64,000 bases of DNA from Terriglobia bacterium (lineage in GTDB: Bacteria; Acidobacteriota; Terriglobia; JAJPHL01; JAPKYU01), in contig CBDBKE010000001.1 of NCBI GenBank assembly GCA_965206645.1, positions 256,001-320,000 on the forward strand, written 5' to 3'. The notes under the pieces were generated by a model. The model ran no database searches. It saw only the letters and a list, made by a program, of their open reading frames with translations, and was not told the origin of the DNA. Each line of letters starts with the position of its first letter. The first letter of the stretch is position 1. Shown here one piece after another: positions 4,016-30,483 of this stretch. Position numbers and translations under genes: made by a program.

Positions 4016-4172
4016 GCTGCCGGTGGTTAGGCTGAAGGTTGAGGGAATTGAAGGTTGGGCCTGAGAGTTGCCCCGCTGGTATCCAGTCGAGGGTGGACTT
4101 TGAGTGCAGGGTATAATTGGGAAGGGAGTGCGGTCTTCGCGTTCCTCGCAGTGAAACTGGTCTCATCGGCTG

Positions 4173-4712: not shown

Positions 4713-4814
4713 GCGTCGTGGACGGGTTGGACCTAGCGCGAGCACGGTACAATGAAATGAGGTTGACGGCGGAGGCATGTTGCCACCTATAAGGTCCCGT
4801 AACGGAAGAGCCCC

Positions 4815-5273: not shown

Positions 5274-5322
5274 CCGGCGATGCGGGAATGGCCGCCGAGC
5301 TGCCTTACCGAGGAGGAAGCGG

Positions 5323-6333
5323 TTGCCTGAGCTGAGGAAAGACCCGATTACCGGGCGCTGGGTGATTATCTCCACGGACCGGGCCAAACGGCCGACCGAC
5401 TTTTCGGTCGAGCCGGCTGAAATCCGAGGCGGCTTCTGCCCGTTTTGCCCTGGCCACGAAGATAAGACGCCGCCGGAAATTCTGGCCTACCGCAGCGATG
5501 GGAGTGGGCCGAACTCGACTGGCTGGTGGGTGCGCGTAGTCCCCAACAAGTTTCCCGCCCTGTGTATCGAGGGAGCCGTGAGCCGACAGGGCGAAGGACT
5601 GTTCGACAAGATGAGCGGCATCGGCGCCCACGAGGTGATCATCGAGACGCCGGTCCACGGGCAGACGCTGGCGACGCTGCCGGAAAAGCGCGTCGAGGAC
5701 GTGCTGTGGGCTTTCCGCGACCGGATGATCGATCTACAGCGGGACAAGCGCTTCCGCTACGTTCTCATTTTCAAGAATCACGGCGCACCGGCCGGCGCCT
5801 CGCTGGAGCATAGCCACTCCCAACTGATTGCGCTGCCCATCGTGCCCAAGCGAGTGCGCGAGGAGGTGGACGGGGCGAAAGGCTACTACGCCTACAAGGA
5901 ACGGTGCGTCTACTGCGATATCATCCGCCAGGAGCGGGATTCCGGCATCCGGGTGATCTCCGAGAACGAAGACTTCCTAACCGTGGCGCCGTACGCGCCG
6001 CGCTTCCCGTTCGAGACCTGGGTCCTGCCTAAGGAGCACGAGTCGGCCTTCGAGAACTCGCAGACGCATTTCTACGAGAACTTGGCGCGGGCGCTGAAGA
6101 ACCTGTTGATGCGGGTGAACACGGTGCTGGAGATGCCCAGCTACAACCTGGTGTTCCACACCTCCCCAGTGAAGGAAGCGCCCAACAACTATTATCACTG
6201 GCACCTGGAGATGATGCCCAAGCTGACCCGGGTGGCCGGCTTCGAATGGGGTACCGGCTTCTACATTAATCCGACACCGCCGGAGGAAGCCGCCAAGTTC
6301 CTGCGCGAGGTGTCCCTGGAGCCAGCCGGCTGA
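5323..6333 (+). CDS. galT: Galactose-1-phosphate uridylyltransferase
   Basis: ELRKDP..WV, CPFCPG, RVVPNKFPAL, G.HEVIIET, GASLEHSHSQ active site; AGGAGG SD at 5311 before TTG 5323. Confidence 0.92.
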   Translation: MPELRKDPITGRWVIISTDRAKRPTDFSVEPAEIRGGFCPFCPGHEDKTPPEILAYRSDGSGPNSTGWWVRVVPNKFPALCIEGAVSRQGEGLFDKMSGIGAHEVIIETPVHGQTLATLPEKRVEDVLWAFRDRMIDLQRDKRFRYVLIFKNHGAPAGASLEHSHSQLIALPIVPKRVREEVDGAKGYYAYKERCVYCDIIRQERDSGIRVISENEDFLTVAPYAPRFPFETWVLPKEHESAFENSQTHFYENLARALKNLLMRVNTVLEMPSYNLVFHTSPVKEAPNNYYHWHLEMMPKLTRVAGFEWGTGFYINPTPPEEAAKFLREVSLEPAG

Positions 6334-6371
6334 GCGGCCGGGCGGAGGGGCTGCACGAGCCGGGATGGCAA

Positions 6372-6401
6372 TTGACCCCTGCGCCGCAAGGGCGGTAGAA
6401 T
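6372..6401 (+). promoter_or_regulatory. Sigma70-type promoter for the tRNA pair
   Basis: TTGACC-18 nt-TAGAAT, ending 11 nt before tRNA-Gly. Confidence 0.7.
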
Positions 6402-6412
6402 CATTTTTGGGC

Positions 6413-14372: not shown

Positions 14373-17300
14373 ATGACCACCCACTCAGGCCAGGCCACGG
14401 CGGTCCTCGCCGAAAAGCCCTCCGTTGCACGAGACATTGCCCAAGTCCTGGGCGCCCACCGGCGTGGCGAGGGGTTCCAGCACGGCAACGGATACATCGT
14501 GACGTGGGCCATCGGTCACCTTGTCTCGCTCGCCGAACCCCACGAAATCAATCCTGCCTGGCGTCGTTGGCGGCGGGATCTGCTCCCGCTGTTGCCTCGC
14601 GAGTGGCCCCTGGTCGTCTACGAAGAGACTCGTGATCAGTTCGAGGTCGTCCGAAGAATCCTCCGCAGCAACAAAGTCGCCCGGATCGTGGCGGCGACCG
14701 ATGCAGGACGGGAGGGCGAGCTGATCTTCCGCTACATCTACAAGTTGGTCGGATGCACGAAACCGGTGGAGCGCCTCTGGATTTCCTCGCTGACATCCGA
14801 GGCAATTCGGCAAGGCTTCCGCACGCTGAAGCCTGCCCGAGCATACGACTGTCTCGCCGATGCGGCCCGAGCGCGCAGCCGGGCCGACTGGCTCGTCGGC
14901 ATGAACCTCTCCCGCCTCTACAGTCTGGACTGCCAGCAACAGCTGTCAGTCGGACGGGTACAGACACCGACCCTGGCCATGGTGGTCGAGCGGGAGTTGG
15001 CGATTCGCTCGTTCGTGCCCGAGGACTATCTGCAGGTCGTCGCGACCTTCCAACCCTTGGAGGGTGCCGGCGACGAGCCAGGAGAGCAATCGGATGGCTC
15101 CGCGCAAAAGCTGTCTTTCAAGGGAACATACTTCCGGCCGGCTGAGAACCCAGCGTCGGTCGGCAAAGCTGAGCTTCTCGACAAGGGCCCATCCCAGCGT
15201 GGCACGCGGCTGCCGGCCGACGGTGAGGAAGCCCGCCAGATCGTCGAGCGGGCCCAAACGGGAGAGGCTCACATCGCGTCCATCGAATGCGAGACGAAGC
15301 GGCTGGCGCCTCCCTTGCTCTATGACCTGACGGAGCTGCAGCGCCACGCCAATCGACTCTACGGCTTCAGCGCGAAGCGGACCTTGGATCTCGCGCAGAA
15401 CCTCTACGAGAAGCACAAGCTCCTCACGTACCCTCGCACCAACAGTCGTCATCTCTCCCAGGACGTGGCAGCAACACTGGACAAAGTCGTACGGGCGATC
15501 GCCGGGCCCTATCAAGCGTCACTTGCTCCGGGAACCGGCAGGCGCCCCCTGGGTCGGCGGTTCGTCGATGACGCCAAGGTCACCGACCACCACGCGATCA
15601 TCCCCACCGGCGTTGCGGGATCACCGCCGCGCGGCGATGAAGCCAAGATCTATGACCTGGTGTGCCGTCGTCTGCTCGGTGCTTGGCACCAGGACCACGT
15701 CTGGGCTGTCACCACCATCATCACCACCGTCACTTCGCCTGCCGAGCCAGAGCAATCGGACCGCGTGGTCGACCGCTACTGCAGCCCGGGCATGTCGGTC
15801 GAACAAGAAGGCTGGAAAGTGCTGGACCTGGCGCCCCCAAGTAAAGCCGCCAAACGAAAACCGACAGCGGAAGAGATCCGAGACGACTCCTCGTCAAAGA
15901 ACTCCCCCTCCGACGGAGAAGGCGCACAGAGAATCCCACCGGGACTGGCACAGGGCCAGCCACAACGAGTCTCCCACGTCGAAGCGCTTTCCAAGAAGAC
16001 ACGGCCGCCGAAGCGATTCACCGAGGCCACGCTGCTGACGGCGATGGAGTCTGCCGGGAAGACGCTCGAAGAAAAAGAGCTTTCCGACGCCATGAAAGAC
16101 CGCGGGTTGGGCACGGCGGCGACCCGCGCGACGATCATCGAGACAGTGTTGCGAAGGGAATACCTGCGGCGTAAGGGCAACTCCCTCGAGGCGACCGAGA
16201 AAGGGATTCACTTGATTGACGTCGTGCACGCTGCGGTCAAGAGTCCGGCCATGACCGGCGAGTGGGAAGCGCAACTGCGCGAGATCGAACGCGGCCAGGG
16301 CCAATTCCAGAAGTTCATGCAGGGGATCGAGGAGTACCTTCGCCACGTTGTCGGCAAGAAGCCGGTGCAAGGACAGCCCGAGCCCTACGCGGAGCATCAG
16401 TCATCCCTTCGGCCGACGGCGGAGTCGCTCGGATCTCGGCCGACCCGTTCCCTTGAGCAAACAGAACGGCGCTCTCTGGCTGCGAGTGCGGGGGCTGGCC
16501 CACAAGGGGCGCTCTCTCACGCCCCGGCAGAGGTGGATCGCGGTCCGCCCACAGCTCGTGTGTCTACGGGCACGGACGGTGCGGAACAGGGTGGGTCCGG
16601 GCTCGGCGAGCTGCTGCGGTCCGGCTTCGGCTTCGAGTCATTCCGTCCCTATCAGGAGGAGGTCTGCGAGGCAGCCGCCGCCGGGCGTGACGTGCTACTG
16701 GTGATGCCCACCGGCGCCGGCAAATCGCTCTGCTACCAACTCCCTGGCCTGGCGCGCGGGGGCGTGACGCTGGTCATCAGCCCCCTGATCGCGCTCATGG
16801 AAGATCAGGTTGCCAAGCTCCAACAAACGGGCCTTCGTGCGGAGCGGATCCACTCTGGGCGCGACCGGGGGCTCAGCCGCGAGGTCTGTTTCCGTTACCT
16901 CGAGGGGAAACTCGATTTTCTCTTCATCGCCCCGGAACGGTTGAATGTGACAGGCTTCCCGGAGATGCTCGCCAAGCGGACTCCCACGCTCATCGCGATC
17001 GACGAGGCACACTGTATCTCACACTGGGGTCACGATTTCCGTCCCGAGTATCGCATGTTGGGACAGCGGCTCGCCCCGCTGCGTCCCGCTCCCGTCATCG
17101 CACTGACCGCGACCGCGACCCCGCTGGTGCAAGACGACATCATCGAACAGCTCGGGCTCAACAACCCGTTATGCGGGATCCACGGATTCCGGCGCGACAA
17201 CATCGCCATCGAGGTCATCGAGAGGACGCCGAGTCAACGCCCTCCAGCAGTCAAGGAGCTGCTCGCGGAGCCAGTGCAGCGCCCCGCCATCATCTATGCG

Positions 17301-18644
17301 CCCACGCGCAAGTCCGCCGAAGAGCTCGCGCTGGAGTTAGCACCACAGTTCTCGACAGCGGCCTACCACGCGGGAATGATGCCGGAGACCCGCGACAAGG
17401 TCCAAACAGCGTTTCTGTCGGGCACACACGAAGTCATCGTCGCCACGATCGCCTTCGGGATGGGGATCGACAAGCCCAACATCCGCACGGTCGTGCATAC
17501 CGGCCTACCGGGCAGCGTGGAAGCCTACTATCAGGAAATCGGCCGGGCCGGACGCGACGGCAAGCCGTCCCGGGCGGTGCTGATGTATTCCTGGGCCGAC
17601 CGCAAGACGCACGAGTTCTTCCAAGGGCGCGACTATCCCGCTGTGGAAGAACTGGAGCGGATCTTCGAGAAACTGTCCAACGAACCCGAGGCCCGCCAGA
17701 AACTCAAGCAGCAGGTTCGAATGGACATGATCGTCTTCGAGAAAGCGCTCGAAAAACTCTGGATTCACGAGGGAGCGCTGATCGATCCCGAAGAAAACGT
17801 GCGGCGCGGTCATGACCGCTGGAGGGCACCCTATATCGCGCAACGCGAGTACAAGCTCAAGCAGCTTGACCGCATCGTCCGCTTTGCCTCCTCACATGAG
17901 TGTCGCATGCGCGACCTCGTCCGACACTTCGGCGACCAAGCGGACTCGCAACAGCCGTGCGGCACCTGTGACATTTGCGCTCCGGATTCTTGTGTCGTGC
18001 AGCGGTACCGGCAGCCCAGCGAAGAAGAAAACGTCAGTCTCGATCAGATCGTTGAAGCCGTCAAGGCGCAAGAGGGGCTGGCCCTCGGCCGGTTGCACGA
18101 ACAAGTCGCCAAAGCGACCCCGCTGGAACGAAAGACTTTCGAGAAGCTGCTGGGTGGGTTGGCCCGGGCAGGGCTCGTCAAGACAATCGCTGCTGCCTTC
18201 GATAAGAACGGGCGGAGGATCGAATATCGCCGCGTTTTTCTTACCCAGGAGGGCCGGCAGCTCACTGGCTCGGCCGCACCCCTCGTCTCGTTGCCGGTCG
18301 AGGCTCCCCCTGCCCCCAAGAAGAAAAAGAAGAAACGCACGGCGAAGCCCGGAAAGAAAGAGCCACGACCGGAGAAGCACAGGCCCACTGTTCAGCCCAT
18401 CGAAGCCGACGACGGACTCCCGGATCCACAACTGGTCGAGCAGCTGCGAGCCTGGCGTCTTGAGAAAGCCCGTGCGCAGCGCATCCCAGCTTTCCGCGTC
18501 TTCCCGGACCGAACCTTAAACTCCATCGCGCAATTGCGCCCCACCAACCAGGAAGAGCTCTTACAAGTGCCAGGCATCGGGCCCCGTCTCGCTCGTAAAT
18601 ACGGTCGGAAGATTCTCTCGCTCGTAGCCGGAAACGACAAGTGA
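14373..18644 (+). CDS. DNA topoisomerase III - RecQ helicase - HRDC fusion protein
   Basis: Type IA topoisomerase: AEKPSVA, DAGREGELI, GRVQTPTL, TYPRT, DHHAIIPT. RecQ: MPTGAGKSLCYQ, DEAHC, ATIAFGMGIDKP, QEIGRAGRDG, Zn site CR..CGTCDIC. C-terminal HRDC: LRAWRLEKAR..IPAFRVF. Confidence 0.92.
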   Translation: MTTHSGQATAVLAEKPSVARDIAQVLGAHRRGEGFQHGNGYIVTWAIGHLVSLAEPHEINPAWRRWRRDLLPLLPREWPLVVYEETRDQFEVVRRILRSNKVARIVAATDAGREGELIFRYIYKLVGCTKPVERLWISSLTSEAIRQGFRTLKPARAYDCLADAARARSRADWLVGMNLSRLYSLDCQQQLSVGRVQTPTLAMVVERELAIRSFVPEDYLQVVATFQPLEGAGDEPGEQSDGSAQKLSFKGTYFRPAENPASVGKAELLDKGPSQRGTRLPADGEEARQIVERAQTGEAHIASIECETKRLAPPLLYDLTELQRHANRLYGFSAKRTLDLAQNLYEKHKLLTYPRTNSRHLSQDVAATLDKVVRAIAGPYQASLAPGTGRRPLGRRFVDDAKVTDHHAIIPTGVAGSPPRGDEAKIYDLVCRRLLGAWHQDHVWAVTTIITTVTSPAEPEQSDRVVDRYCSPGMSVEQEGWKVLDLAPPSKAAKRKPTAEEIRDDSSSKNSPSDGEGAQRIPPGLAQGQPQRVSHVEALSKKTRPPKRFTEATLLTAMESAGKTLEEKELSDAMKDRGLGTAATRATIIETVLRREYLRRKGNSLEATEKGIHLIDVVHAAVKSPAMTGEWEAQLREIERGQGQFQKFMQGIEEYLRHVVGKKPVQGQPEPYAEHQSSLRPTAESLGSRPTRSLEQTERRSLAASAGAGPQGALSHAPAEVDRGPPTARVSTGTDGAEQGGSGLGELLRSGFGFESFRPYQEEVCEAAAAGRDVLLVMPTGAGKSLCYQLPGLARGGVTLVISPLIALMEDQVAKLQQTGLRAERIHSGRDRGLSREVCFRYLEGKLDFLFIAPERLNVTGFPEMLAKRTPTLIAIDEAHCISHWGHDFRPEYRMLGQRLAPLRPAPVIALTATATPLVQDDIIEQLGLNNPLCGIHGFRRDNIAIEVIERTPSQRPPAVKELLAEPVQRPAIIYAPTRKSAEELALELAPQFSTAAYHAGMMPETRDKVQTAFLSGTHEVIVATIAFGMGIDKPNIRTVVHTGLPGSVEAYYQEIGRAGRDGKPSRAVLMYSWADRKTHEFFQGRDYPAVEELERIFEKLSNEPEARQKLKQQVRMDMIVFEKALEKLWIHEGALIDPEENVRRGHDRWRAPYIAQREYKLKQLDRIVRFASSHECRMRDLVRHFGDQADSQQPCGTCDICAPDSCVVQRYRQPSEEENVSLDQIVEAVKAQEGLALGRLHEQVAKATPLERKTFEKLLGGLARAGLVKTIAAAFDKNGRRIEYRRVFLTQEGRQLTGSAAPLVSLPVEAPPAPKKKKKKRTAKPGKKEPRPEKHRPTVQPIEADDGLPDPQLVEQLRAWRLEKARAQRIPAFRVFPDRTLNSIAQLRPTNQEELLQVPGIGPRLARKYGRKILSLVAGNDK

Positions 18645-19390: not shown

Positions 19391-20551
19391 CTAGATGGCC
19401 AGCGCTGTAAAGGAACTCGCGCCGTGCTCGTTCGCCTGTCGGTCGAGCTTGGACAGCGCTTCCCGCATCATGTTGAGCTTCGCGTGGCTGTAGCGCTTGA
19501 ACACCTGCGAATCGCCTTGTCGGAGCATCTGCGTCACGAAATGATCCGCCACGCCCCCGGCGCTGAGCCGGGTCGCAAACGTGTGGCGCAGCTCGTATAG
19601 CGAAAAATGCGGCAGCCCGGCGCGCTGGAGCGTCCGGTTCCACAGCTTTTGCACCGTCGTGATGTGCGGCTTGCTCAAGTCCATCCGCGAGCTCGGGAAC
19701 AGGTAGTCGGAATCGCCGCTCTGCTTCATCTGTGAGGCGAACGCTTGACGGGCTCTGTCGGTCATCGGCATGTCCGCGATACCATTCACCGTCTTGGAAT
19801 CCGGCAGATGCACGATCCCGTTCTCCAGATCGACCTGTCCCTTTCGCATCGGGATCAACTCCCGATAGGGCCGCAGCCCCATCTCCACCATGATCGCGAT
19901 GATGTTGCGCAGGTACAGGGGCGCGCAGGCTTCCAGCCAGGCCTGCTTCGAGGCGGTCAGATAGTGCGGCTTGCGCGTCGTGCCCGCCAACGCCACCGGA
20001 AACTCCACCCCATTACAGGGATTGACCGCCAGCCGCCGCTTCTTCACCGCCACGTTCAGGATACGTCTCAGGACGCGAAACTCCTGATGCACGGTGGCAG
20101 GTTTGAGCCTGCCGCGAAGTTGCAGCCCCAACTTGGTATGCACCCGCTTGCCTGTATTCAATCTGGTCATCAGGTACGATTCGATATCTTCCGGTGTGAT
20201 GTCCGATAGTCTGTTCTTGCCGAACCGGGGCCTCAGGAACTTCAACGCGCCGAGGTTCTGCACGTGAGTCTTCTCGCTCCGGAAGGGTGGTTTGGATCGG
20301 TTCTCAAGGAACCAGTCCGCCCACTCGTTGAACCTGATCTCCCCGCCCGGCGCGGCGCTCGGCAGCAACCCCTCGTCGCGAGCCACCAACCGTTTGCGCA
20401 TCACCTTCTCGGCTTCCCCTTTTTCTCTCTGCCCTGTCGAGGTCTGTCTCCACCTCCCGTTCTGCTCTCGATAGCTCATCCACCAGACGCGTGAATTGCA
20501 CCGCAGGTACAGGCTACCAGCGGTATTTCTGGGTCTACCTGTCTTGTTCAT
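19391..20551 (-). CDS. Tyrosine recombinase / phage-type integrase
   Basis: GLRPYRE (catalytic R), LPDSKT (K), YELRHTFATRL, MLRQ...VFKRYSH (Y); N-terminal arm-binding-like region; GGAGG SD. Confidence 0.93.
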   Translation of the reverse strand: MNKTGRPRNTAGSLYLRCNSRVWWMSYREQNGRWRQTSTGQREKGEAEKVMRKRLVARDEGLLPSAAPGGEIRFNEWADWFLENRSKPPFRSEKTHVQNLGALKFLRPRFGKNRLSDITPEDIESYLMTRLNTGKRVHTKLGLQLRGRLKPATVHQEFRVLRRILNVAVKKRRLAVNPCNGVEFPVALAGTTRKPHYLTASKQAWLEACAPLYLRNIIAIMVEMGLRPYRELIPMRKGQVDLENGIVHLPDSKTVNGIADMPMTDRARQAFASQMKQSGDSDYLFPSSRMDLSKPHITTVQKLWNRTLQRAGLPHFSLYELRHTFATRLSAGGVADHFVTQMLRQGDSQVFKRYSHAKLNMMREALSKLDRQANEHGASSFTALAI

Positions 20552-20753
20552 CGATTCCTCCATTCACATGAAATTGCTGGCGCCACTCGGCTAGCTCCGA
20601 CAATCGGAAGCGGATCGAGCGGCCCATCATGCGGTAATGGGGAATCTGCTTTCGCTCGACGTAAGCATACACCAGCGAGGGGCTGACGCCCAGGAAGCGG
20701 GCGGCGGCCTTCACCGTGATCGGGGCTTCCCTCGCTTCTGTGTCCAGGCTCAT
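20535..20753 (-). CDS. Excisionase-like HTH_17 DNA-binding protein
   Basis: ITVKAAARFLGVSPSLVYAYV....IPHYR....IRFRLSEL; overlaps the integrase start. Confidence 0.88.
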   Translation of the reverse strand: MSLDTEAREAPITVKAAARFLGVSPSLVYAYVERKQIPHYRMMGRSIRFRLSELAEWRQQFHVNGGIDEQDR

Positions 20754-20968
20754 CCTTCCTCCTCTACTCTCCACGCCGGACCGAGCGCTCCGTCAGATCC
20801 ACCTTCCGCCCCGGATCGGCGAGTCCGGCGGCTTGCGTCTTCGGGAAAGACGCCGTACTCCTGGGCGATCCAGGCCGGGACTTCCAGCGTCTCGTCACCG
20901 TCCCGGCCGAGCTCCAGGGCGAAGTCCCTGATGGTATTCACCCGTATGATTTTTTCTTCATCCCTCAT
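20750..20968 (-). CDS. Small hypothetical protein
   Basis: 72-aa ORF overlapping both neighbours in the operon. Confidence 0.45.
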   Translation of the reverse strand: MRDEEKIIRVNTIRDFALELGRDGDETLEVPAWIAQEYGVFPEDASRRTRRSGAEGGSDGALGPAWRVEEEG

Positions 20969-21923
20969 TGTGTTCCCTCCAGATCGGCTTGATGATCCAG
21001 TGGTTCTGTGGCGCGTCGTAGCCCTGGACGAGCAGCGCTTCCTCCACGAAGCGGCGTCCCTCTCGCCGTGTCATGTGAATCACCATGGCGATGCCGTCCA
21101 CCACGCCCCGGCAGGTCACCTCCCAGGGAAGCTCACCGCCGCCCTGCATGGCGCAACTGGCGATGCGCGACAAGGCCGACTCGGCGTTGTTGGCGTGTAC
21201 GGTGGTGAGGGAGCCGCCGTGTCCGGTGTTGAGGGCTTGCAATAGATCAGCGGCCTCGCCGCCCCGGACCTCGCCCACCACGATGTGATCCGGGCGGTGA
21301 CGCAAGGCGTGGCGGACTAAATCACGGATCGTCACCGCTCCGGTTGCCAGTCCGCGAGCCTCGAAGCGGACGCAATTAGAGCGCTCAATGCGAAGCTCAA
21401 GGGTGTCCTCGATGGCGACGATGCGCTCGTCGTTGGGAAGCAATTCAATAAGTGCGTTAAGCAGGGTGGTCTTGCCCGATCCAGTGCCGCCTGAAACCAG
21501 GATGTTTCGCCGGGAGCGCAACACCCGCTCGGCTTCCGCTCGCACGTCTTCGGGGAGTGCGCCTTGCTTCACGAGATCATCCGCCGAGAACGCCCGCTTG
21601 CCAAAGCGCCGCATGGTGATCGCCACTTGAGGACTCGCGGGCGGAACACAGATGGCAACCCGCGAGCCGTCGTCCAGGCGCGCATCGACAATCGGCGAGC
21701 TCGCCGGATCCAAGCCCAAAGGACGGGCAATGTGGATGGCCGCCCGCAATAGGGCCGATTCGTCCAGGTCCGGCGCGTCATGTGCCGTCAACCGCCCGGC
21801 CCGCTCGACCCAGACATTGCCGGGGCCGTTAATCATGATCTCGCTGACTTCGGAATCTTCCAGGGCGCTTTCCAATCCCGGTAGAAATGGTTTCAGGTGT
21901 TCCAGTCCACTCGCGGTGCTCAT
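20958..21923 (-). CDS. CpaF/VirB11-family secretion ATPase
   Basis: VSEIMING, VDARL.DGSRV, Walker A SGGTGSGKTT, IEDTLEL, ALRHRPDHIVVGEVRG, NTGH.GSLTTVHAN. Confidence 0.92.
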   Translation of the reverse strand: MSTASGLEHLKPFLPGLESALEDSEVSEIMINGPGNVWVERAGRLTAHDAPDLDESALLRAAIHIARPLGLDPASSPIVDARLDDGSRVAICVPPASPQVAITMRRFGKRAFSADDLVKQGALPEDVRAEAERVLRSRRNILVSGGTGSGKTTLLNALIELLPNDERIVAIEDTLELRIERSNCVRFEARGLATGAVTIRDLVRHALRHRPDHIVVGEVRGGEAADLLQALNTGHGGSLTTVHANNAESALSRIASCAMQGGGELPWEVTCRGVVDGIAMVIHMTRREGRRFVEEALLVQGYDAPQNHWIIKPIWREHNEG

Positions 21924-24049
21924 AATTGACCCGCCGCTTTCGCTCTCCAATACGAATGTGCGAGGGGCAGATAGTGAGGCTTGAGGTAGACCCGGCGCGG
22001 TTCAATCGACTGCGACCCGTCATAGGGCAGACAGATCGCTTGACAGTTCGAGAGCAGCGTGAAGTCTCGCGGGTGAAACACGGCCTCGCGTTGCTCCCGG
22101 AAAGACTTGGTCGCGCCGATGCTGCCCCCGCCTCCACCGGCGCGGCCCGACAGCGGGGAGACTTCCGCCCGCTTGGAGGTCTCGCTGATGGTGTAGGATC
22201 CCTTGATCTTCGCCACCTGCCCGCACATTTCGCTTGCAATCTTGGCGCTGGCGTCGTCGCTGAGAGACAGGAAAATCCGTGTGCGGAGCGTCTGCAACAG
22301 CGACCGCCATGCTTCCGAGCTTCCCAACACGGAGCGGAGCGAGGAAATGGATTGCGTGGCGACAATCGGGATGCAGCGGCATTGCCGGGTCAGCGCAAAG
22401 GATTTCTCATCGCCCGATGGATCGTCCTCACCCACCGAAGCGAAGGCTTGATATTCGTCACAGATAAAGACGGCAGGCCGGAAATAGACCCCCGGCGACT
22501 CCTTCATCTTGGTCGGGCGCATGAGAAGCGCCTGTAGCCAGGCGTTCTTGAGCATCACGCCCACGGCGCGGGCCAGCGCCGGGTTCGATCCGGCGGGCAT
22601 GTTCAAGGCCAGCACCTTGCCCCTTTCGATCAATTCATAGAGCGGGGGCAGGTGTCGCGGCCCGGCGATTCGTTCCTCTTCGACCGGCGGGATCGACGTG
22701 GGCGCGGGTTTGTCTCCTTCCCCGCCGTCCGGCTTCTTGTTCAGTTCCTGGGCTTCTTCCCCGGCCCGCTTCGCGGCCCTGGCCTGAACTGCAATGGCTT
22801 GCGGATCGTCGGGGACTTCCGGCGGCCCCGGACAAAACACCTTTGCCACATCCGGCATATCGAACATGGCAAGGAACACCGAAACCCCCTCCACAATCGA
22901 GGACTTCACTTTGTTGTCCAGCGTTTGCCAGTCGTTGACAAACCAGCGCTTCACCGCCTCCACTCGTTCTCTCACTTCGTCGCCGGGTCCGGGGTCCCAA
23001 ACCACCCGGTAGGTCAGCTTGAGCTCGTCCAGTTTGTTGAGCATGGGACGGGAGTAGGCGGCCCGCACTTCTTCCGTTCCCGGTATGTCTTTCCATAGCC
23101 ATTCAGCCAAGGTCATGATGTGGGCTTGGTATACGACCTCTGGAATGAAAACCGTGCCTCTGTTCAACTCGTCGCTCCACGCTTCGGCTTGCTCGATCTT
23201 GGCAGCGAAAAGGTCCGGGTCGATGGCGCAGCGGTAGACCTGCTGCAACGTCACCCACCGTTCCGGGAAGATTCGGTGAAGCTCAATGATCCAGCGGACC
23301 AGATTGGTATAGGCTTGCTGCCAGAACGGTTCCTTGCCCTTGCCGAATAGCTGGTTGAGAAGGCTCGAAACGGTGTAGGCCAGCGAGTAGGAATCGAGCC
23401 ACCAGGCCGAGAGCGGGTTCCATTGCCAGCGGTCCTTCATGCCAAGCTCGATGTAGTCTTTTCCCCGGCCTGCCTCGGTCAGGATTTGGCGGATGTCGTG
23501 ACAGAAATCTCCCTTGACTTCGAGCATGAGCGCTGCCGCCCGCATCTGTGGATTCGCCGCTTGCCAGCCGAGAAGTTGCTTAGCGAAGGGGTGCATACAA
23601 GCCGAGGTCTTGCCGGACCCGACGGCCCCGAAGATCGCCACGCCGGTATACAGCCCGCGCTCCGGGATGGTGAGCCAGGAGGGATTGAAAATCTCCCGCG
23701 CCTCGACCGGATGATGGACCTCCCCGATGACGATGGCCGGGGCCGTTTGCCGGGGTGAAAGCGGCCAGGTCGGGAGCGCCCCAAAGGGCGCAAAATCCCG
23801 CCGCCGCGATTCCAGCCAGACCTTCCAGACGGACAAGAGAACGAGGCCCGCGAGCATGACGGCGAAGAAAGGCGAAGCGTAGTACCAGAGCATCACCCAG
23901 CCGTAGAAGTTCGGGGTGTGGTAGTCCATCAGATCGAGCAAGGGACTATCCCCAAGCATGGGGAAGGGACGGTGGACAAAGCTCCACAGGGCGTACCCCA
24001 GCGCGCCGAAAAACAGAAGGATGTGAGGAATGAAGCGCCTCCATTTCAT
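21920..24049 (-). CDS. VirD4/TraD-like type IV coupling protein
   Basis: Two N-terminal TM segments, Walker A GAVGSGKT, KGDF, WNPL, FICDEYQ, ATQS. Confidence 0.85.
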   Translation of the reverse strand: MKWRRFIPHILLFFGALGYALWSFVHRPFPMLGDSPLLDLMDYHTPNFYGWVMLWYYASPFFAVMLAGLVLLSVWKVWLESRRRDFAPFGALPTWPLSPRQTAPAIVIGEVHHPVEAREIFNPSWLTIPERGLYTGVAIFGAVGSGKTSACMHPFAKQLLGWQAANPQMRAAALMLEVKGDFCHDIRQILTEAGRGKDYIELGMKDRWQWNPLSAWWLDSYSLAYTVSSLLNQLFGKGKEPFWQQAYTNLVRWIIELHRIFPERWVTLQQVYRCAIDPDLFAAKIEQAEAWSDELNRGTVFIPEVVYQAHIMTLAEWLWKDIPGTEEVRAAYSRPMLNKLDELKLTYRVVWDPGPGDEVRERVEAVKRWFVNDWQTLDNKVKSSIVEGVSVFLAMFDMPDVAKVFCPGPPEVPDDPQAIAVQARAAKRAGEEAQELNKKPDGGEGDKPAPTSIPPVEEERIAGPRHLPPLYELIERGKVLALNMPAGSNPALARAVGVMLKNAWLQALLMRPTKMKESPGVYFRPAVFICDEYQAFASVGEDDPSGDEKSFALTRQCRCIPIVATQSISSLRSVLGSSEAWRSLLQTLRTRIFLSLSDDASAKIASEMCGQVAKIKGSYTISETSKRAEVSPLSGRAGGGGGSIGATKSFREQREAVFHPRDFTLLSNCQAICLPYDGSQSIEPRRVYLKPHYLPLAHSYWRAKAAGQL

Positions 24050-24090
24050 GGGTCCGTCTGCCTTCCGTCAGCGCCCCCGCTGGGGGCTGC

Positions 24091-24385
24091 TCCGAGCCTT
24101 CCCGCAGGGATCAATGAGGACGATAGCGACCCCATGGGGCAGCGATAGGGGCATGTGACACAGTGCCTCTATCGGGGCCACATGACCCCCCGGTTTTCGG
24201 GGGGGTCGCTATCGTCCTCCCCGATTCTGCTCCTTCGGCGCAGCGGAGGCCGAGTGACAAGGGAGAGCCACAGAAGAATGAGAGAGATACGGAAATATGG
24301 AGTTGGGACACCCTTTGTCGAAATCGTGTGACATCCCCCCCTCTGTGACTGTCACATTTAACACGCGGCCCCCAGTCACACGAAA
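24091..24385. promoter_or_regulatory. Structured non-coding element upstream of the coupling-protein gene (candidate oriT/oriV), copy A
   Basis: 20-bp box 24091-24110; perfect 18-bp inverted repeat 24116-24133 / 24202-24219; internal hairpins; TGTGAC repeats. Confidence 0.55.
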
Positions 24386-24388
24386 AAG

Positions 24389-25504
24389 GGCGTTGGTGCA
24401 TGAATCGTCCTCGGCTCCCCCGCTAGCATTGGCTCGGTGTTCCGATCCATCATGGAGATCAAGGGGGGCAACGTCATGGCCGCAGGGAAGTCGAGCCGAG
24501 TCAACCGCAAGTACAAGACGAAATGCAGAATCTGGAACTGGAGGGAGTACGAGCGGGGCCTCAGGAGCCGCGGCGACGTCACGATCTGGCTGAGCGAGGA
24601 GGCGATCGCCGCGTGGACACCGGCGAAGAACGGTCTCCGCGGAGGCCAGCGGCGGTACTCGAACCTCGCGATCTTGACCGCGTTGACGCTGCGGGTCGTC
24701 TTCCACCTGCCGCTTCGCCAGACCGAGGGTTTCCTAGACTCGCTGCTCAGCTTGATGGGCCTCGACCTCAAGGCCCCGGACCACACCACACTCTCGCGCC
24801 GGAACCAAATCGTTGAGGTGCCGCCTCTAACCCGAGCCCACGACGGCCCGATCCACTTGATCGTCGATTCCACGGGGCTCAAGATCCTGGGTTGCGGCGA
24901 ATGGAATTCGCACAAGTACAAGGCATCCAAGAAACGCCGGGACTGGCGAAAGCTGCACATCGGAGTGGATGACGAGGGGTTCATTGTGGCGGCCGAACTC
25001 ACGACGAGCAGCGGGGACGACGCCTCCGCCCTGCCGGATCTGCTCGACCAGATCGAGGCTCCCATCCGGCGTTTCACGGCGGACGGGGCCTACGACAACA
25101 GGGCGATCTACGATCGGGTCGGCGCGGCCGGTACAGAGGACGTCGTGATCGTGATCCCCCCTCGTCGCTGTGCGGTGTCCGCGGGGCCCACGGACGGCCC
25201 GTGGGCGCAACGAGAAGCGGCTCTTCAGAGAGTTCGTAAGATCGGACGACGAGAGTGGCAGAAGGAGTTGGGCTACCGACAGCAGGCGCGCGTTGAGAAC
25301 TGGTTCTTCCGATACAAGTCAGTGCTCGGAGGAAGCCTGAAGGCGAGGAACAGCAACGCGCAAAGGAAAGAGACCACGATCGGGTGTCACATCCTCAACC
25401 GGATGGCCGAGCTCGGCAGGCCGAAGTCCTACGCCGTGGTGTCATGAACGAGGGGTTGGGAAAACGGCCTGACTCGCGCCAAGGTTGAATCGTGCAACAG
25501 CGCC
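24389..25504 (+). mobile_element. IS5-family (IS903 group) element type A, transposase 24476-25447
   Basis: IRs GGCGTTGGTGCATGA / TCGTGCAACAGCGCC; NWREYE..L..RG, PDHTTLSRR, VDSTGLK, WRKLHIGVD, ADGAYD. Confidence 0.92.
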
Positions 25505-25791
25505 CCGAGGCGGCGCTAAAAACTTGGAGCAGCCGGGCGGGTGAGCAGAGCAGTCAACGGGAATATGGACCGAGCCGAAACGACCCGGAAGTGCAGGAGG
25601 AAATCAAGTACATCGAGACCGCGCTTAACAATGCGGACACAAGGATCATAGCGAAGTACGGAGGGGTCGAGGAAATCTCGGACAGGCTGATGGAACTGAA
25701 AGACCTTCCCAAGTCGAGCGGCCCCGGAGCCACCATCGACGACTACGAGACGTGGGTTTCTGACCGCTTGAGGGCGGAGGAAACAGTCTAG
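25505..25791 (+). pseudogene. 3' fragment of an unknown gene truncated by the IS5 element
   Basis: Open frame running from the IS end to a stop at 25791; no recognisable motif. Confidence 0.4.
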
Positions 25792-25879
25792 TGAACCGTA
25801 CTGATAGAACCTCAGATTTCAGGCGTTCCGGAGTCAAGGCCGGGGTCCAGGCCTTGCCGGACCATCGTGCCACAAATAT

Positions 25880-26151
25880 AAGGGGGGGTATGGGGCATAA
25901 ATCGGCTGGGTGGTGTTCCACCGCCATTTTCCTTACTTTGTTGTACCACAGTAGCTTAGACGCTACTACCAAGCCAGACCGTGCCGATACAGAGGAAAAG
26001 GGAAAGACGGAAGCGACCCCCCCCTTTTTGCCGCTCTAGCGGCAAACATGGCGGGGGTTTGGGGCAGGGTTTGTTACAGGGTTTGGGGCATACCCTGCCC
26101 CCCCTTATGGGGGTCGCTTCCGTCCAAATTGTCCCTGCGGGAAGGCTCGGA
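25880..26151. promoter_or_regulatory. Structured non-coding element, copy B (inverted, diverged homologue of 24091-24345)
   Basis: Identical 20-bp box (reverse complement) at 26132-26151; 16-bp inverted repeat 26006-26021 / 26109-26124; 12-bp tandem units GGGTTTGGGGCA / GGGTTTGTTACA / GGGTTTGGGGCA. Confidence 0.55.
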
Positions 26152-26290
26152 TAAAGGCCCATGCGCAGCAACGGATACGCGCCGGAGAGAGGCCGGATGA
26201 AATGGTGTCATCCGGTTGGTTCTGGTTGCTTTTCCAAGGAAGTTAGACTAGTTTTATGTCTAGTCATTCTTTTGGCGGAGGTAACGCTGC

Positions 26291-26551
26291 ATGAGCAAGA
26301 CATGGCAGGTGCAAGATGCCAAGGCGCGTTTCAGCGAGTTGCTTGAGACGAGTTTGGCCGAAGGCCCCCAGATCGTGACCAAACGGGGCGTGGAGACGGC
26401 CGTGCTGTTACCCATCGACGAGTGGCGACGATTGGAGAAGCGGGCTAGGCCGGATCTCAAGCAACTACTGCTCGCTCCAGAGGCTCGCACGGATGCGCTG
26501 ACGCCGCCACGGCCGCAGCATCGCCACCGCGTGTCTCCGAGCTTCGATTAA
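26291..26551 (+). CDS. Phd/YefM-family antitoxin
   Basis: WQVQDAKARFSELL...GPQIVTKRG...AVLL; upstream palindrome GACTAG...CTAGTC. Confidence 0.9.
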   Translation: MSKTWQVQDAKARFSELLETSLAEGPQIVTKRGVETAVLLPIDEWRRLEKRARPDLKQLLLAPEARTDALTPPRPQHRHRVSPSFD

Positions 26552-26555
26552 ATCC

Positions 26556-26978
26556 GTGTACCTGCTCGACACCAATGTCGTATCGGAACTGCGCCGTCCT
26601 CATCCGCATCCAACCGTCGTCCGGTGGATTGAAGAAGTGGCCGCCGATGAACTGTTCCTGTCCGCGGTGACGGTCGGGGAGATCCAAGCAGGCATCGAAC
26701 TCACCCGCGAGCAGGATGTCGCCAAGGCGGAGGAACTGGAAACATGGCTCAGCGCGGTGCTGGCCTCCTATAACGTCCTCCCCATGAACGCAACCACATT
26801 CCGGGAATGGGCGAGGCTCAAGCATCGCCGTTCAGACACTCTGCTGGAGGACGCCATGATCGCCGCGACGGCCGTGGTGCATCGGCTGACGATCGTGACC
26901 CGGAACGTGCGCGATTTTGACCAGCTCGGGGTAGATCTCCTGAATCCATTCGAACACGAATCCGACGTGCGGCGGTAA
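26556..26978 (+). CDS. vapC: VapC PIN-domain toxin
   Basis: [30 protein letters not shown]. Confidence 0.93.
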
Positions 26979-26997
26979 GCTGGAGGAATCACAACCT

Positions 26998-28617
26998 ATG
27001 GCGAGCCGGACACCCCCTAAGACGCGCACCCGCTCGGAAATGACTCCGCAGAGCACAGGTGCCACGACCGGCTATGAGGCCGAGCTTTGGCAGATGGCCG
27101 ACACCCTGCGCGGCTCGATGGACGCGGCCGAATACAAGCATGTCGTTCTCGGCCTGATTTTCCTGAAGTACATCTCCGATGCCTTCGAGGAGAGGCACGC
27201 CCGTCTCGAAGGCGAGAAGAAACAAGGCGCCGACCCGGAGGACCCGGACGAGTATCGCGCCGAGAACATCTTCTGGGTGCCGCCCGAGGCTCGATGGACG
27301 CATCTCAAAGCACAGGCAAAGCAACCCACCATCGGCCAGCTCATTGACGACGCCATGACCGGGATCGAGCGCGACAACCCGGCGCTCAACAACGTGCTGC
27401 CCAAGGACTACGCCCGCCCGGCGCTGGACAAACAGCGGCTTGGCCAGATCATCGATCTGATCAGCAACATCAGGGTCGGCGACGAGGAGGCCCGCTCCAA
27501 GGACGTGCTCGGCCGCGTCTACGAATATTTCCTGTCACAGTTCGCCAGCGCCGAGGGCAAGAAGGGTGGCGAGTTCTATACCCCGCGCTGTGTGGTCAAG
27601 CTGCTGGTCGAGATGCTGGAGCCCTATCGGGGCCGGGTCTACGATCCCTGCTGCGGATCGTCCGGCATGTTCGTACAATCGGTCGAGTTCATCCGCGCGC
27701 ACGCCACCGGCAACGGCAACGCTGGAAAAGCGCCCAAGGGCACCAAGGCCGACATCTCGATCTACGGGCAGGAGTCCAACTACACGACCTGGCGGCTGGC
27801 GAAGATGAACCTCGCCATCCGTGGCATCGACGGGCAGATCGCCCACGGCGACACGTTCCACAACGACCGCCACCCCGACCTCAAGGCCGATTTCATCCTG
27901 GCCAACCCACCCTTTAACGTCTCCGATTGGGGCGGCGAGCGGCTCACCGACGACAAGCGCTGGCAATACGGCGCCCCTCCCAAGGGCAACGCCAACTTCG
28001 CCTGGGTGCAGCATATGGTGCACCACTTGGCACCGGGCGGCACGGCCGGCTGCGTGCTCGCCAACGGCTCGATGTCGTCGGGCCAGTCGGGTGAGGGCCA
28101 GATCAGAAAAACCCTCATCGAGGCGGACCAGGTGGACTGCATGGTAGCGCTGCCGGGCCAGCTCTTCTATTCCACCCAGATTCCCGCCTGCCTGTGGTTC
28201 CTCGCCCGTGACAGGCGCAATGGCAAGCTCCGCGACCGGCGCGGCGAAGTGCTGTTCATAGACACCCGCAAGCTGGGCCGCATGGTGGACCGCACCCACC
28301 GTGAGCTGACGAATGAAGACATCGCCCGCATCACCGATACCTACCATGCCTGGCGTGGTGAGAAAGGCGCGTGTGAGTACGCCGACGTGCCCGGTTTCTG
28401 CAAGTCGGCGACATTGGAGGAGGTACGCAAGCACGGCCACGTGCTCACGCCCGGCCGCTACGTCGGTGCGGAAGCACAAGAGGACGACGGCGAGCCCTTC
28501 GCGGACAAGATGAAGCGGCTGGTTGCCGAACTGCGCCAGCAGCAGACCGAGGCCGGGAAGCTGGACGCCGCCATCAAGGCAAATCTCAAGAGCCTGGGGT
28601 TTGGGAACAGTCCGTGA
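26998..28617 (+). CDS. hsdM: Type I restriction-modification methyltransferase subunit M
   Basis: [38 protein letters not shown]. Confidence 0.95.
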
Positions 28618-28661
28618 CCTGCCGCGATGACAAGGTCTTCTTTTCTTACGCCGCGTGACGC

Positions 28662-28691
28662 TTGACGTCTATCGTCAACAATCGCTACACT
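28662..28691 (+). promoter_or_regulatory. higBA promoter with palindromic operator
   Basis: TTGACG-18 nt-TACACT; palindrome TTGACG-tctat-CGTCAA over the -35. Confidence 0.65.
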
Positions 28692-28700
28692 GGCGTTAGC

Positions 28701-28982
28701 ATGATTCTCGGATACCGGGACAAGAGAACCGAACTGTTCGCCGGTGGAGCTTTCGTCGCAGCATTCCAGGGATTTGAAAGGCAGGCAACGAAGCGGCTTT
28801 CAATCCTGAACGCGGCGCCATTGCTGGACACTTTGAGGGCCTTGCCAAGCAATCGCCTGGAAGCTCTCAGAGGCGAGAGAGAAGGACAGTACTCCATCCG
28901 GATCAACCGGCAATGGCGTATCAGCTTCACTTGGAGCGACGGTCCGGGGCCGACCGACGTTGAGATTGTGGACTATCACTAA
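28701..28982 (+). CDS. higB: HigB (RelE/ParE family) toxin
   Basis: PSNRLEALRGER.GQYSIRINRQWRI.F.W......VEIVDYH. Confidence 0.92.
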   Translation: MILGYRDKRTELFAGGAFVAAFQGFERQATKRLSILNAAPLLDTLRALPSNRLEALRGEREGQYSIRINRQWRISFTWSDGPGPTDVEIVDYH

Positions 28983-29002
28983 AAGCGAGGAGGACGGGAG
29001 GC

Positions 29003-29293
29003 ATGTTAAAGCGTGTCGTTCATCCCGGGGAGATTCTGAAAGACGAGCTTGCGGAACTGGGCGTGACCCCAACGACGTTCGCGCGCCAGATCAATGTGCC
29101 GCCGAACCGGGTCAGCCAGATTATCGCCGGCAAGCGTTCCGTGACCGGCGACACCGCCCTGCGGTTCGGGCACTGGTTCGGAGTCGATCCTCAATTCTGG
29201 CTGAACCTCCAGACGCAATTCGATCTCGTCGTCGCCGACCAGCGAGTTGGAGCGTCCGTGCGTGAATTGCCGGTCGCGCCGCAAGCGACGTAA
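29003..29293 (+). CDS. higA: HigA antitoxin (XRE HTH)
   Basis: HPGEIL, GKRSVTGDTALR, FWLNLQ. Confidence 0.92.
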   Translation: MLKRVVHPGEILKDELAELGVTPTTFARQINVPPNRVSQIIAGKRSVTGDTALRFGHWFGVDPQFWLNLQTQFDLVVADQRVGASVRELPVAPQAT

Positions 29294-29374
29294 TTACCGC
29301 CTGCTGTCGGTGTTTGTCTCTCCGAGGTATCACTGGGTGCAAGCGGGGAGCCGTTTGACAGGAGGAGTTCGGGT

Positions 29375-30483
29375 ATGGCGGGTGAGTGGTGTAGGTATAA
29401 CGTCAGTGAATTGATCGAGAAAGAGGCCCTTGCTATTGGGGATGGCTACCGAGCAAAAAATGCGGAACTTTCACGCACTGGTCTCCCGTTTGCGAGAGCA
29501 AGCAATATTGGAAATGGATTTCACTTTTCTGACGCTGACTGCTTTCCTGAGGATCATACGTACAAGCTTGGCGAAAAGATTAGCCGACCCGGCGATGTTG
29601 TGTTTACGTCTAAGGGAACGGTTGGTCGATTTGCCTTCGTAAGAGAGGAAACTCCGCGTTTTGTCTATTCGCCACAACTCTGCTATTGGAGACCTCTAGA
29701 CAAAGAGATCCTAGACGCACGCTTCCTCTATTACTGGATGGCAAGCCGCGAATTCCTCTTGCAAGTCAAGAGTGTTGCCAGCCAGACCGATATGGCGGAA
29801 TACGTTAGTCTTCGGGATCAGCGCCAAATGCACATCACTGCTCCGCCCCCCCCCGAACAACGCGCCATCTCCCACATCCTGGGCACGCTGGACGACAAGA
29901 TCGAGTTGAACCGGCGAATGAACGAGACGCTCGAAGCAATGTCGCGGGCGCTGTTCAAGTCCTGGTTTGTCGATTTCGACCCCGTTCGCGCCAAGATGGA
30001 AGGCCACGACCCCGGTCTGCCCCAACACATCGCCGACCTCTTCCCCGACCGGCTTGTGGAGTCCGAGCTCGGCCAAATTCCCGAGGGGTGGGAGGTAAAG
30101 ACACTTGGAAGCGTTGCGGATAATCCGAGGCGAGGAGTTCGGGCACAGGAAATCGATCCTGGAACACCCTACATCGCACTTGAGCACATGCCGAAGCAGT
30201 GCATCGCGCTTTCAGAATGGGGCACTGCTGATGACGTATCTAGCGGTAAATTCGAGTTCACACGAGGCGACATTCTGTTTGGCAAGCTTCGCCCATACTT
30301 CCACAAAGTGGGCATTGCCCCACTACAGGGAGTCTGCTCAACCGATATTGTCGTCATTTCGCCAGTCTCTCATGACTGGTTCGGCTTCATTCTCGGCCAC
30401 GTATCCAGCTCAGAGTTCGTCGATTACACGAGCGCCGGATCCACAGGAACGAAGATGCCGCGCACCAAGTGGAGCGATATGGC
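29375..30483 (+). pseudogene. hsdS: Type I R-M specificity subunit S, truncated in the second TRD by IS30
   Basis: PPPPEQRAISHILGTLDDKIELNRRMNETLE..ALFKSWF, ELGQIPEGW, GSTGTKMPR; sequence switches to the IS30 inverted repeat at 30484. Confidence 0.9.

Follow-up and report, generated by a model that had tools for sequence, protein, structure and literature searches.

An intergenic element with element-specific heptamers as a candidate origin of transfer in integrative and conjugative elements of Acidobacteriota

The window analysed here, a 64-kb stretch of contig CBDBKE010000001.1 from a Terriglobia bacterium of the phylum Acidobacteriota, carries two inverted copies (A and B) of an intergenic element that we consider a candidate origin of transfer (oriT). 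Copy A lies next to the start of a virD4 gene, and copy B lies next to an orphan remnant of such a start. Both are marked by the 20-mer TCCGAGCCTTCCCGCAGGGA, which occurs exactly at only two sites in the window, 24091-24110 on the plus strand and 26132-26151 on the minus strand. Allowing up to two mismatches yielded no further sites, and none of 100 shuffled sequences gave any match. The parts of the two copies are as follows.

24091-24110: 20-mer of copy A, near-invariant, candidate nic region
24100-24103 (TCCC), 24104-24106 (GCA), 24107-24110 (GGGA): mini-hairpin within the copy A 20-mer
24116-24219: long-range hairpin of copy A, with perfect 18-bp arms at 24116-24133 and 24202-24219
24143-24174: inner hairpin within the long-range hairpin, with loop TGTGACA at 24154-24160
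Within 24116-24219: C6/G7 hairpin, enclosed by the long-range hairpin
24304-24380: heptamer array of copy A, surrounding the C-run at 24335-24341
24304-24310 (TGGGACA) and 24327-24333 (TGTGACA), plus strand: direct heptamers of copy A
24350-24356 (TGTCACA) and 24374-24380 (AGTCACA): inverted heptamers of copy A
25869-26151, minus strand: copy B, with its 20-mer at 26132-26151
26006-26021 and 26109-26124: 16-bp arms of the copy B stem
26084-26090, 26060-26066 and 25891-25897: TGCCCCA sites of copy B (TGGGGCA on the plus strand)
25882-25888: G-run of copy B, with the inverted heptamer partner TGCCACA at 25869-25875
26197-26205, plus strand: orphan ATGAAATGG, the start of a virD4 that is otherwise lost, at 45 nt from the copy B 20-mer

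A first-pass annotation made from the letters of the window had described these regions as inverted, diverged copies of one structured element, and each of its structural observations was reproduced. The 20-mer is identical in A and B. The long-range stem differs between them at two adjacent positions, AT in A and GA in B, with the change mirrored on the other arm. A block of the form GGAAA-TGG...ACACC and the C-run match up when A is compared with B's reverse complement, and TGTGACA repeats in A are replaced by TGCCCCA repeats in B at the places that had been indicated; copy A holds three of the nine exact TGTGACA matches in the window. Beyond the 20-mer, ATGAAATGG follows after 41 nt in A, where it begins virD4 (24049), and after 45 nt in B (26197). 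We therefore regard A and B as confirmed, genuine but diverged examples of one element of approximately 300 bases. The annotation had not recognised the element as a described motif, and our full-text literature search likewise found no description of it, of the protein P314 encoded beside it (see below) or of transfer origins in acidobacterial integrative and conjugative elements (ICEs).

After removal of duplicates, our collection comprises 116 distinct copies of about 300 bp, whose parts follow a conserved order that we describe in the orientation of copy A. The order starts with the virD4 start codon and ribosome-binding site, which has a small GC hairpin, and continues with a near-invariant 16-20-mer that includes the mini-hairpin TCCC-GCA-GGGA. 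After an A/T-rich spacer of 5-9 nt comes the left arm of the stem, GACG-NN-AGCGACCC. The loop of the inner hairpin carries one element-specific heptamer, or in some lineages three at 12-nt spacing, and past this hairpin lie a second small hairpin, the right arm and a conserved block (AACCACAGCGGAATGAGAGAGATA...GGAAT.TGG). Four distal heptamers then occur at about +213, +236, +259 and +282 (22-24 bp apart), oriented ++-- and symmetric about a run of 7-19 C residues. The far end of the element is formed by an A-run, followed by the stop codon of the upstream gene.

Approximately 20 heptamer types were seen, including TGTGACA, TGTCACA, TGCCACA, TGCCGCA, TGCCCCA, TGGTACA, TGGAACA, TGTAACA, TGTTACA, GGAAACA, TGTGATA, TGTTGCA, TGCAACA, TGGGACA, GGTAGCA, TGTGAAT and GCACATG. 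In most elements a single type recurs four or five times, and some are mosaic. These counts leave out the 40 of 116 elements for which automatic heptamer calling gave no call. The element is far more diverged (75-83% at the nucleotide level) than the adjoining VirD4 (92-96% at the amino acid level), and the 20-mer is fixed. In an alignment of the approximately 16 kb that five ICE copies in the genome of the window share at roughly 92% identity, two stretches vary most: the element's distal half, where mean pairwise identity is 0.64, and the segment of the P314 gene coding for the first ~100 residues, at 0.78-0.80.

The genome of the window (four contigs, 4.4 Mb, 61% GC) holds about 12 copies of the element. 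It also carries at least seven copies of virD4, at 64-96% amino acid identity, each adjoining an element copy and located directly downstream of it. The ICE family is strongly amplified in this genome, and its copies tend each to have a different heptamer type. A combined pattern of 20-mer and left arm was present in five of 41 related genomes, with a maximum of 16 copies in one genome (the congener G003), and a reversed control gave no matches. Across the phylum, 12 of 401 sampled genomes carry the 20-mer at no more than one mismatch. Among 185,579 species genomes scanned, at least 79 loci were recovered, almost all of them in metagenome-assembled genomes (MAGs) of Acidobacteriota. The matches listed include Bryobacterales, Vicinamibacterales, Terriglobia, Holophagales, Thermoanaerobaculia, Ca. 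Multivorans, Ca. Acidiferrales and Ca. Marinacidobacterium and, outside the phylum, one Gemmatimonadetes MAG and one Dehalococcoidia MAG.

In an intact ICE copy (G000:C4, loci L017/L018), the element is the sole long intergenic gap in a co-directional, one-strand cluster of approximately 16 kb that carries type IV secretion system (T4SS) genes. The cluster encodes, in order, an ArdC-like protein, the unnamed protein P299, VirB2, VirB3, VirB4, VirB9, VirB10, a VirB5-like secreted protein, VirB6, VirB8 and P314, followed by the element and then by VirD4, VirB11 and a tyrosine integrase. At every copy with two intact flanks the order is P314, element, virD4. Full-length P314 and VirD4 are both present at 45 of the 116 copies, and a further seven have full P314 without VirD4. 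Modules of P314 and element that lack the T4SS (L153, L156) adjoin different integrases of the P4 type; the second of these arrangements, in genome G382 (L156), has the order P314, element, integrase. An IS (insertion sequence) end, a miniature inverted-repeat transposable element and a repetitive extragenic palindrome were considered as identities for the element and rejected, as its copies keep one gene context and the only IS here is a separate IS5-family element.

No relaxase of a known MOB family was found in the ICE: searches of its genes with Pfam and NCBIfam gave no relaxase domain. In the whole genome (97.9% complete), PF03432, PF08751, PF07514, PF13814, PF01076 and PF02486 gave nothing at E ≤ 1e-3, and PF03389 (MobA_MobL) gave two matches below the cut-off, both far from any ICE copy. 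The integrase is unlikely to act as a relaxase in the manner of TcpM; it is the only tyrosine recombinase in the ICE, it is terminal, and in the islands it is swapped for P4-type integrases. In another genome, positions 1415-2344 of locus L155 (G425:C1) encode a canonical MobA_MobL relaxase (E 6e-24), about 3 kb from a copy of P314 and element without VirD4. The second unnamed ICE protein, P299 (L018 9472-10371, minus strand, in G000:C4), is encoded between VirB2 and ArdC. It has a MarR-like stretch that aligns weakly with P314's winged helix-turn-helix (wHTH) (hhalign E 0.06), is conserved among ICE copies with different heptamers, and has an identity of 0.91-0.98 in the alignment of ICE copies described above.

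To assess the stem we used an alignment of 55 element copies (A2). The outer helix is 88.4% paired, and the two variable pairs are distributed as AU29/GC14/GU4/UA3/CG2 and GC26/UA21/AU2/UG1. In 500 column shuffles neither the covariation score nor the paired fraction of the real alignment was ever reached, and six slid controls all fell far lower. The covariation that the first-pass annotation had proposed to test is strong. The central dinucleotide of the stem takes six forms (AT, GA, TG, AG, GG and CG), always compensated on the opposite arm, and the stem, 14-18 bp long, lies 5-9 nt from the 16-20-mer. At least 12 of 17 Watson-Crick pairs are retained in 49 of the 55 copies; the remaining six rows are degenerate remnants or chance look-alikes of the 20-mer. 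Across these 49 copies the 14-bp core contains only three G-T cells and one A-C cell, and for this reason we favour a constraint at the level of DNA, whether a hairpin or cruciform formed when the DNA is single-stranded or supercoiled, or a set of symmetric protein contacts. Such a nearly pure Watson-Crick core appears to fit DNA better than RNA.

The same data bear on a structured leader or intercistronic RNA, in which a three-way junction would control translation of virD4 or the processing or stability of its mRNA. The element does have co-directional genes on both sides, with the virD4 start 41-45 nt further on, its stem covaries, and the sense strand of copy A folds as RNA at -157.8 kcal/mol with a z score of -4.5. 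Contigs from two metatranscriptome runs also span virB11, virD4 and the 20-mer region, which is not proof of transcription. However, an equally exceptional fold (z -4.6) is obtained from the antisense strand as DNA, and structured RNAs usually tolerate G-U pairs, which the core stem of the 49 copies almost entirely avoids. Moreover, the heptamers occur in both orientations with the periodicity of the double helix and co-vary with a DNA-binding helix, and the element persists where virD4 is gone. When the covariance models of Rfam 15 were run on both strands of window positions 20000-30000, a comparison that the first-pass annotation had proposed, there were no matches at E ≤ 1. We consider an RNA function very unlikely.

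The gene immediately upstream of the element is unnamed, and its 314-aa product, P314, has a MarR-like winged helix at its N-terminus, the only winged-helix domain found in it, and a conserved C-terminal domain of ~220 aa. A collection of 5.8 billion proteins contains 3124 homologues, none of them named and none with a Pfam domain. No family assignment was obtained from Pfam, NCBIfam, PHROGs, sequence and profile searches of the PDB, or the ESM Atlas, where P314 appears only as acidobacterial hypothetical clusters. When loci were instead found through P314 homologues, the element was present 270-330 nt past the P314 stop codon in six of 11 loci of the closer family. In these six the core of the 20-mer varies but the mini-stem is kept (for example as the compensated TCCT-GCA-AGGA), with loops GTA, GGA and GCTA. 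A distant subfamily from several Acidobacteriota genomes (L165-L172, L176; E 1e-20 to 1e-35; 340-460 aa; C-terminal motif ...LPHPY.HL...VGTA) has no recognisable 20-mer downstream, and the element was clearly present at none of nine such loci. Perhaps these proteins act at another cis site.

Within P314, it is precisely the recognition helix and wing that vary. Among the 52 pairs of element and full-length P314, 35 had an automatic heptamer call and the other 17 were dropped. The mutual information between heptamer type and the 179 variable columns of P314 peaks at residues 53, 48 and 50 (z 7.1, 6.7 and 6.1), the three of which open the recognition helix; the next-best column reaches z 5.7. 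All four 'RRN' proteins pair with TGGAA(C/T)A, 'SK.AH' is found in four of the five P314 proteins of TGCCGTA elements, and 'AQRFV' pairs with TGGTACA. The stem dinucleotide, examined in the same way, shows a diffuse association over the whole protein (z 10-14) that tracks clade structure, and it was rejected as a P314 contact. A predicted complex of VirD4 (residues 100-709) with P314 had a score of 0.00, which speaks neither for nor against a contact. The first-pass annotation had proposed to test whether heptamer type co-varies with the neighbouring Rep or relaxase; here ~20 types track the recognition helix of the adjacent P314. Taken with the distribution and the constant context, this supports the view, put forward in the first-pass annotation, of a conserved cis-element of one mobile-element family with element-specific sites. 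The findings on which that annotation would have abandoned its proposal were not made: homologous loci keep the 20-mer and the stem, and no match to a known IS end, an Rfam family or coding sequence was found.

A MarR-like fold next to symmetric ++-- sites, a layout typical of dimeric repressors, suggests that P314 might be a transcription factor. The heptamer array would then be its operator over an internal promoter, which would serve virD4-virB11-int in the ICE or phd-vapC-hsdM in the island form, and the hairpin and 20-mer would be part of a leader or a second regulatory site. The genes downstream are always co-oriented, in the island form as well, and a sigma-70-like match on the virD4 strand (TCGACA, 16 nt, CATATT; 9/12) lies between heptamers at 24321-24294. 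Such a match is nevertheless at chance level (one found against 0.6 expected). An operator also leaves unexplained why a near-invariant 20-mer and a covarying stem of 14-18 bp are kept across orders amid drift, what the additional conserved 220-aa domain of P314 does, and how an element with a T4SS and VirD4 manages without a canonical relaxase. As the whole explanation we judge it unlikely, but such a role could coexist with that of an oriT; relaxosome accessory proteins often autoregulate.

Short sites repeated every 22-24 bp beside the gene for a winged-helix protein are also reminiscent of iteron-type replication origins. In the pPS10 RepA and RK2 TrfA systems, the gene for a winged-helix protein lies beside sites ~22 bp apart. 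ICEs replicate after excision, and P314 could be a Rep-like initiator acting at an origin or a single-strand initiation site to replicate the excised element, a notion to which the portability of the P314 and element cassette would lend itself. Unlike iteron origins, however, the element has 7-bp sites in a ++-- layout and no direct-repeat array, and it is embedded in conjugation genes. Neither copy A nor copy B contains a DnaA-box-like site at up to one mismatch, there is no AT-rich stretch that could act as an unwinding element (GC is at least 0.50 in all 100-bp windows), and a single winged-helix domain was found in P314. A 'distant' search of PLSDB with virD4 and the element matched no plasmid. 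We likewise consider this account very unlikely.

We favour the proposal that the element is the oriT of Acidobacteriota ICEs and of their mobilisable derivatives without a T4SS, with P314 as specificity factor or novel relaxase, and give it about an even chance of being correct. It is the best reading because P314 is the only constant gene companion of the element and its DNA-reading residues change with the repeats; because an element with a T4SS and VirD4 and no canonical relaxase needs some DNA-processing module; because integrase, P314, element and cargo together form the classic architecture of a mobilisable island; and because the inverted repeat adjoins a near-invariant sequence. The element lies beside the P314 and coupling-protein genes within a mobile element. 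Read along the operon's sense strand, the P314 gene comes first, then the binding sites, the inverted repeat, the 20-mer and finally virD4. This layout matches a canonical oriT, where binding sites and an inverted repeat lie 5′ of nic and the processing gene is transferred last. P314 and the element are also portable without the T4SS, and a module containing copy B is 94% identical across two families (see below), as expected of a mobilisation cassette. Among the three functions suggested by the first-pass annotation, the oriT is favoured, the missing DnaA box and AT-rich stretch and the ++-- sites speak against the iteron origin, and the near absence of G-U pairs speaks mildly against the RNA, with no decisive separation between them.

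In the sequence of binding, nicking, strand choice and transfer that we infer, P314 would bind the element-specific heptamers through its MarR-like winged helix, occupying four sites at ~23-bp spacing (++-- around the C-run) and one to three more within the big hairpin. The bound protein would build a relaxosome-like complex on the element, which presents the conserved hairpin, together with the 20-mer and its TCCC-NNN-GGGA mini-hairpin, for strand cleavage, either by the conserved C-terminal domain of P314 or by another partner, and for handover to VirD4. The pairing of heptamers with recognition helices would prevent cross-reaction among the many co-resident copies. A bolder form of this proposal, which we advance tentatively as less likely than not but with a substantial chance of being correct, is that P314 founds a new family of non-HUH relaxases, with a winged helix, a novel alpha/beta catalytic domain and ~3,100 unnamed homologues, that nicks at the mini-hairpin of the 20-mer. 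The ~20 heptamer/helix pairs would then be a specificity code that keeps co-resident ICE and integrative and mobilisable element (IME) copies, up to 16 per genome, orthogonal, and the system would be the main conjugation system of Acidobacteriota.

Several observations weigh against the assignment as an oriT. Within 1.5 kb of 34 of the 116 copies, VirD4 and a recognisable P314 are both absent, and these copies may be debris, diverged types or oriT-only hitchhikers. The test of heptamers against P314 ignores shared ancestry and left out 17 of 52 pairs; it draws its strength from how columns contrast with one another. Two or three pairs of P314 and element are discordant (L112, L127 and perhaps L119), of which L112 and L127 look like recombinants. 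Contigs of four sequencing runs are uninformative on nicking: the bin of 20-mer and left arm is the deepest in all four, and contig breaks are common at 24082 and 24128-24133, a picture that mirrors only the pattern of conservation. The likeness of ATCCCTG|C to what we take to be the IncP-type nic consensus could not be documented. Finally, the sigma-70-like match inside copy A points at virD4, and the virD4 start retained in B has nothing obvious to drive other than, possibly, the toxin-antitoxin and restriction-modification (R-M) genes, so that a regulatory role fits as well.

Non-canonical transfer origins offer the closest comparisons. Francia and Clewell reportedly concluded in 2002 that a conserved inverted repeat and plasmid-specific short repeats set specificity in pAD1 and pAM373. 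In the oriT of these enterococcal plasmids with TraX, and in that of CloDF13 with MobC, a non-HUH DNA-processing protein acts with short repeats placed away from nic. In the acidobacterial element the heptamers lie ~100-170 bp beyond the hairpin and 20-mer and differ between elements, and no HUH relaxase was found in the ICE. The MOBC relaxase TraX of pAD1 binds five direct repeats 70-120 bp from nic, with no detectable covalent intermediate (PMC12857230). The repeats here differ in being arranged ++-- at ~23 bp. P314 furthermore shows no detectable sequence or fold relation to PD-(D/E)XK enzymes, and its host, a diderm Acidobacterium, uses a VirB-type T4SS and is not an Enterococcus. Alignment of the P314 profile with two CloDF13 ORFs by hhalign gave E values of 0.33 and 0.58, the mobC reading frame in that record being uncertain.

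In the pCW3 system of Clostridium perfringens, the gene for the wHTH protein TcpK lies just upstream of oriT; TcpK binds 9-nt boxes in tandem and is proposed to supply specificity (PMC6137059). The relaxase of that system, TcpM, is non-canonical. The acidobacterial arrangement resembles the pCW3 one in having a winged-helix gene directly upstream of a site with short repeats. P314 shares with TcpK the winged-helix fold and the gene position, and co-variation suggests that it may likewise bind the repeats. It is three times larger, with the extra conserved domain of ~220 aa, and has no sequence relation to TcpK; whereas TcpK binds through its beta-wing, the co-variation in P314 points to the canonical recognition helix. 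The element is assigned to neither the TraX nor the TcpK family, as P314 has no demonstrable relation to either. In the oriT of F-like plasmids, a conserved scaffold carries allele-specific sites for TraM, TraY and TraI that limit cross-talk between co-resident elements. The present element similarly joins a conserved scaffold to element-specific sites matched to alleles of a cognate protein, but it differs in using a wHTH instead of ribbon-helix-helix proteins and tetrameric TraM, in having far more specificity types (~20) and in its location within the T4SS operon.

The surroundings of copies A and B in the window show how both came to their present state, and the neighbouring features are listed here.

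19391-20563, minus strand: tyrosine recombinase (integrase), left end of ICE remnant A (Pfam Phage_integrase, E 3e-19; PHROG integrase, E 2e-57)
20958-21950, minus strand: VirB11-type ATPase (Pfam T2SSE, E 1e-49)
21920-24049, minus strand: VirD4-type coupling protein, 709 aa (Pfam TraG-D_C and TrwB_AAD_bind), start codon 41 nt from the 20-mer
24389-25504, plus strand: IS5-family insertion sequence, transposase gene 24437-25447 (Pfam DDE_Tnp_1_5 and DDE_Tnp_1)
24389-24410 and 25483-25504: imperfect 22-bp terminal inverted repeats of the IS, 16/22 matched
25505-25791, plus strand: C-terminal remnant (~95 aa) of the P314 homologue of copy B, whose tail ...ATIDDYETWVSDRLRAEETV aligns with the conserved P314 C-terminus
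26291-26551, plus strand: Phd/YefM antitoxin, cargo of the B-type island (Pfam)
26556-26978, plus strand: PIN/VapC toxin, cargo of the B-type island (Pfam)
26998-28617, plus strand: type I R-M methylase HsdM, cargo of the B-type island (Pfam)

Copy A terminates what remains of an ICE (int, virB11, virD4, element), and synteny among ICE copies is conserved out to about -4.85 kb from the 20-mer. Its homology to other copies stops at +298, window position 24388, where the IS5-family element starts. This insertion interrupts ICE-A just past its element, as well as the P314 gene of element B, and it has no target duplication. Two differently truncated mobile elements are joined at the IS, which implies an IS-mediated deletion or inversion. 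Near-identical copies of the IS are abundant across the genome of the window.

Copy B is the remnant of a related, IME-like island without a T4SS. The 3.1-kb module at 25505-28628, comprising the last ~95 P314 codons, copy B, the orphan virD4 start, phd, vapC and hsdM, is 94% identical over 3127 bp to L153 (G033:C12) 3289-6412. G033 is the genome of a different family; its homology to the module begins at 25505, and it contains the same junction of orphan start and phd-vapC. The module in G033 is intact, with a P4-type integrase, full-length P314, element, phd, vapC and hsdM and no T4SS, and its P314 is the 321-aa counterpart of that of copy B (near-identical module L046/L153). The suggestion that B was left over from a second, related element is borne out by this intact form, and the 94% match between two families indicates recent horizontal spread of the island. 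Both copies in the window are relics, A having been deprived of P314 and the T4SS genes by the IS5-mediated rearrangement and B having lost its integrase and most of P314.

Two further observations were made around ICE-A. The ICE copy most like it (element identity 96% at the nucleotide level) has one in-frame TAG in its P314 gene (G000:C3:13999-14931) and may be defective. Just beyond the integrase end of remnant A, window 14373-18644 (plus strand) is a single open reading frame of 1423 aa that fuses a Toprim/type IA topoisomerase to HRDC and a DEAD/RecQ-type helicase that has a RecQ zinc-binding domain.

Few soil bacteria are as abundant as Acidobacteriota, yet there has been essentially no study of how they exchange genes. 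According to a 2012 survey, nothing was known about conjugation in the phylum. A phylum-wide family of ICEs and IMEs of the kind described here would be scored as 'MOB-less' by standard relaxase-based tools, and the present analysis provides a concrete candidate oriT together with a candidate processing protein, P314. The ~20 matched variants of site and helix form a natural data set on how a winged helix changes its DNA specificity. If it works, the oriT/P314 cassette could become a genetic tool for Acidobacteriota that are hard to manipulate.

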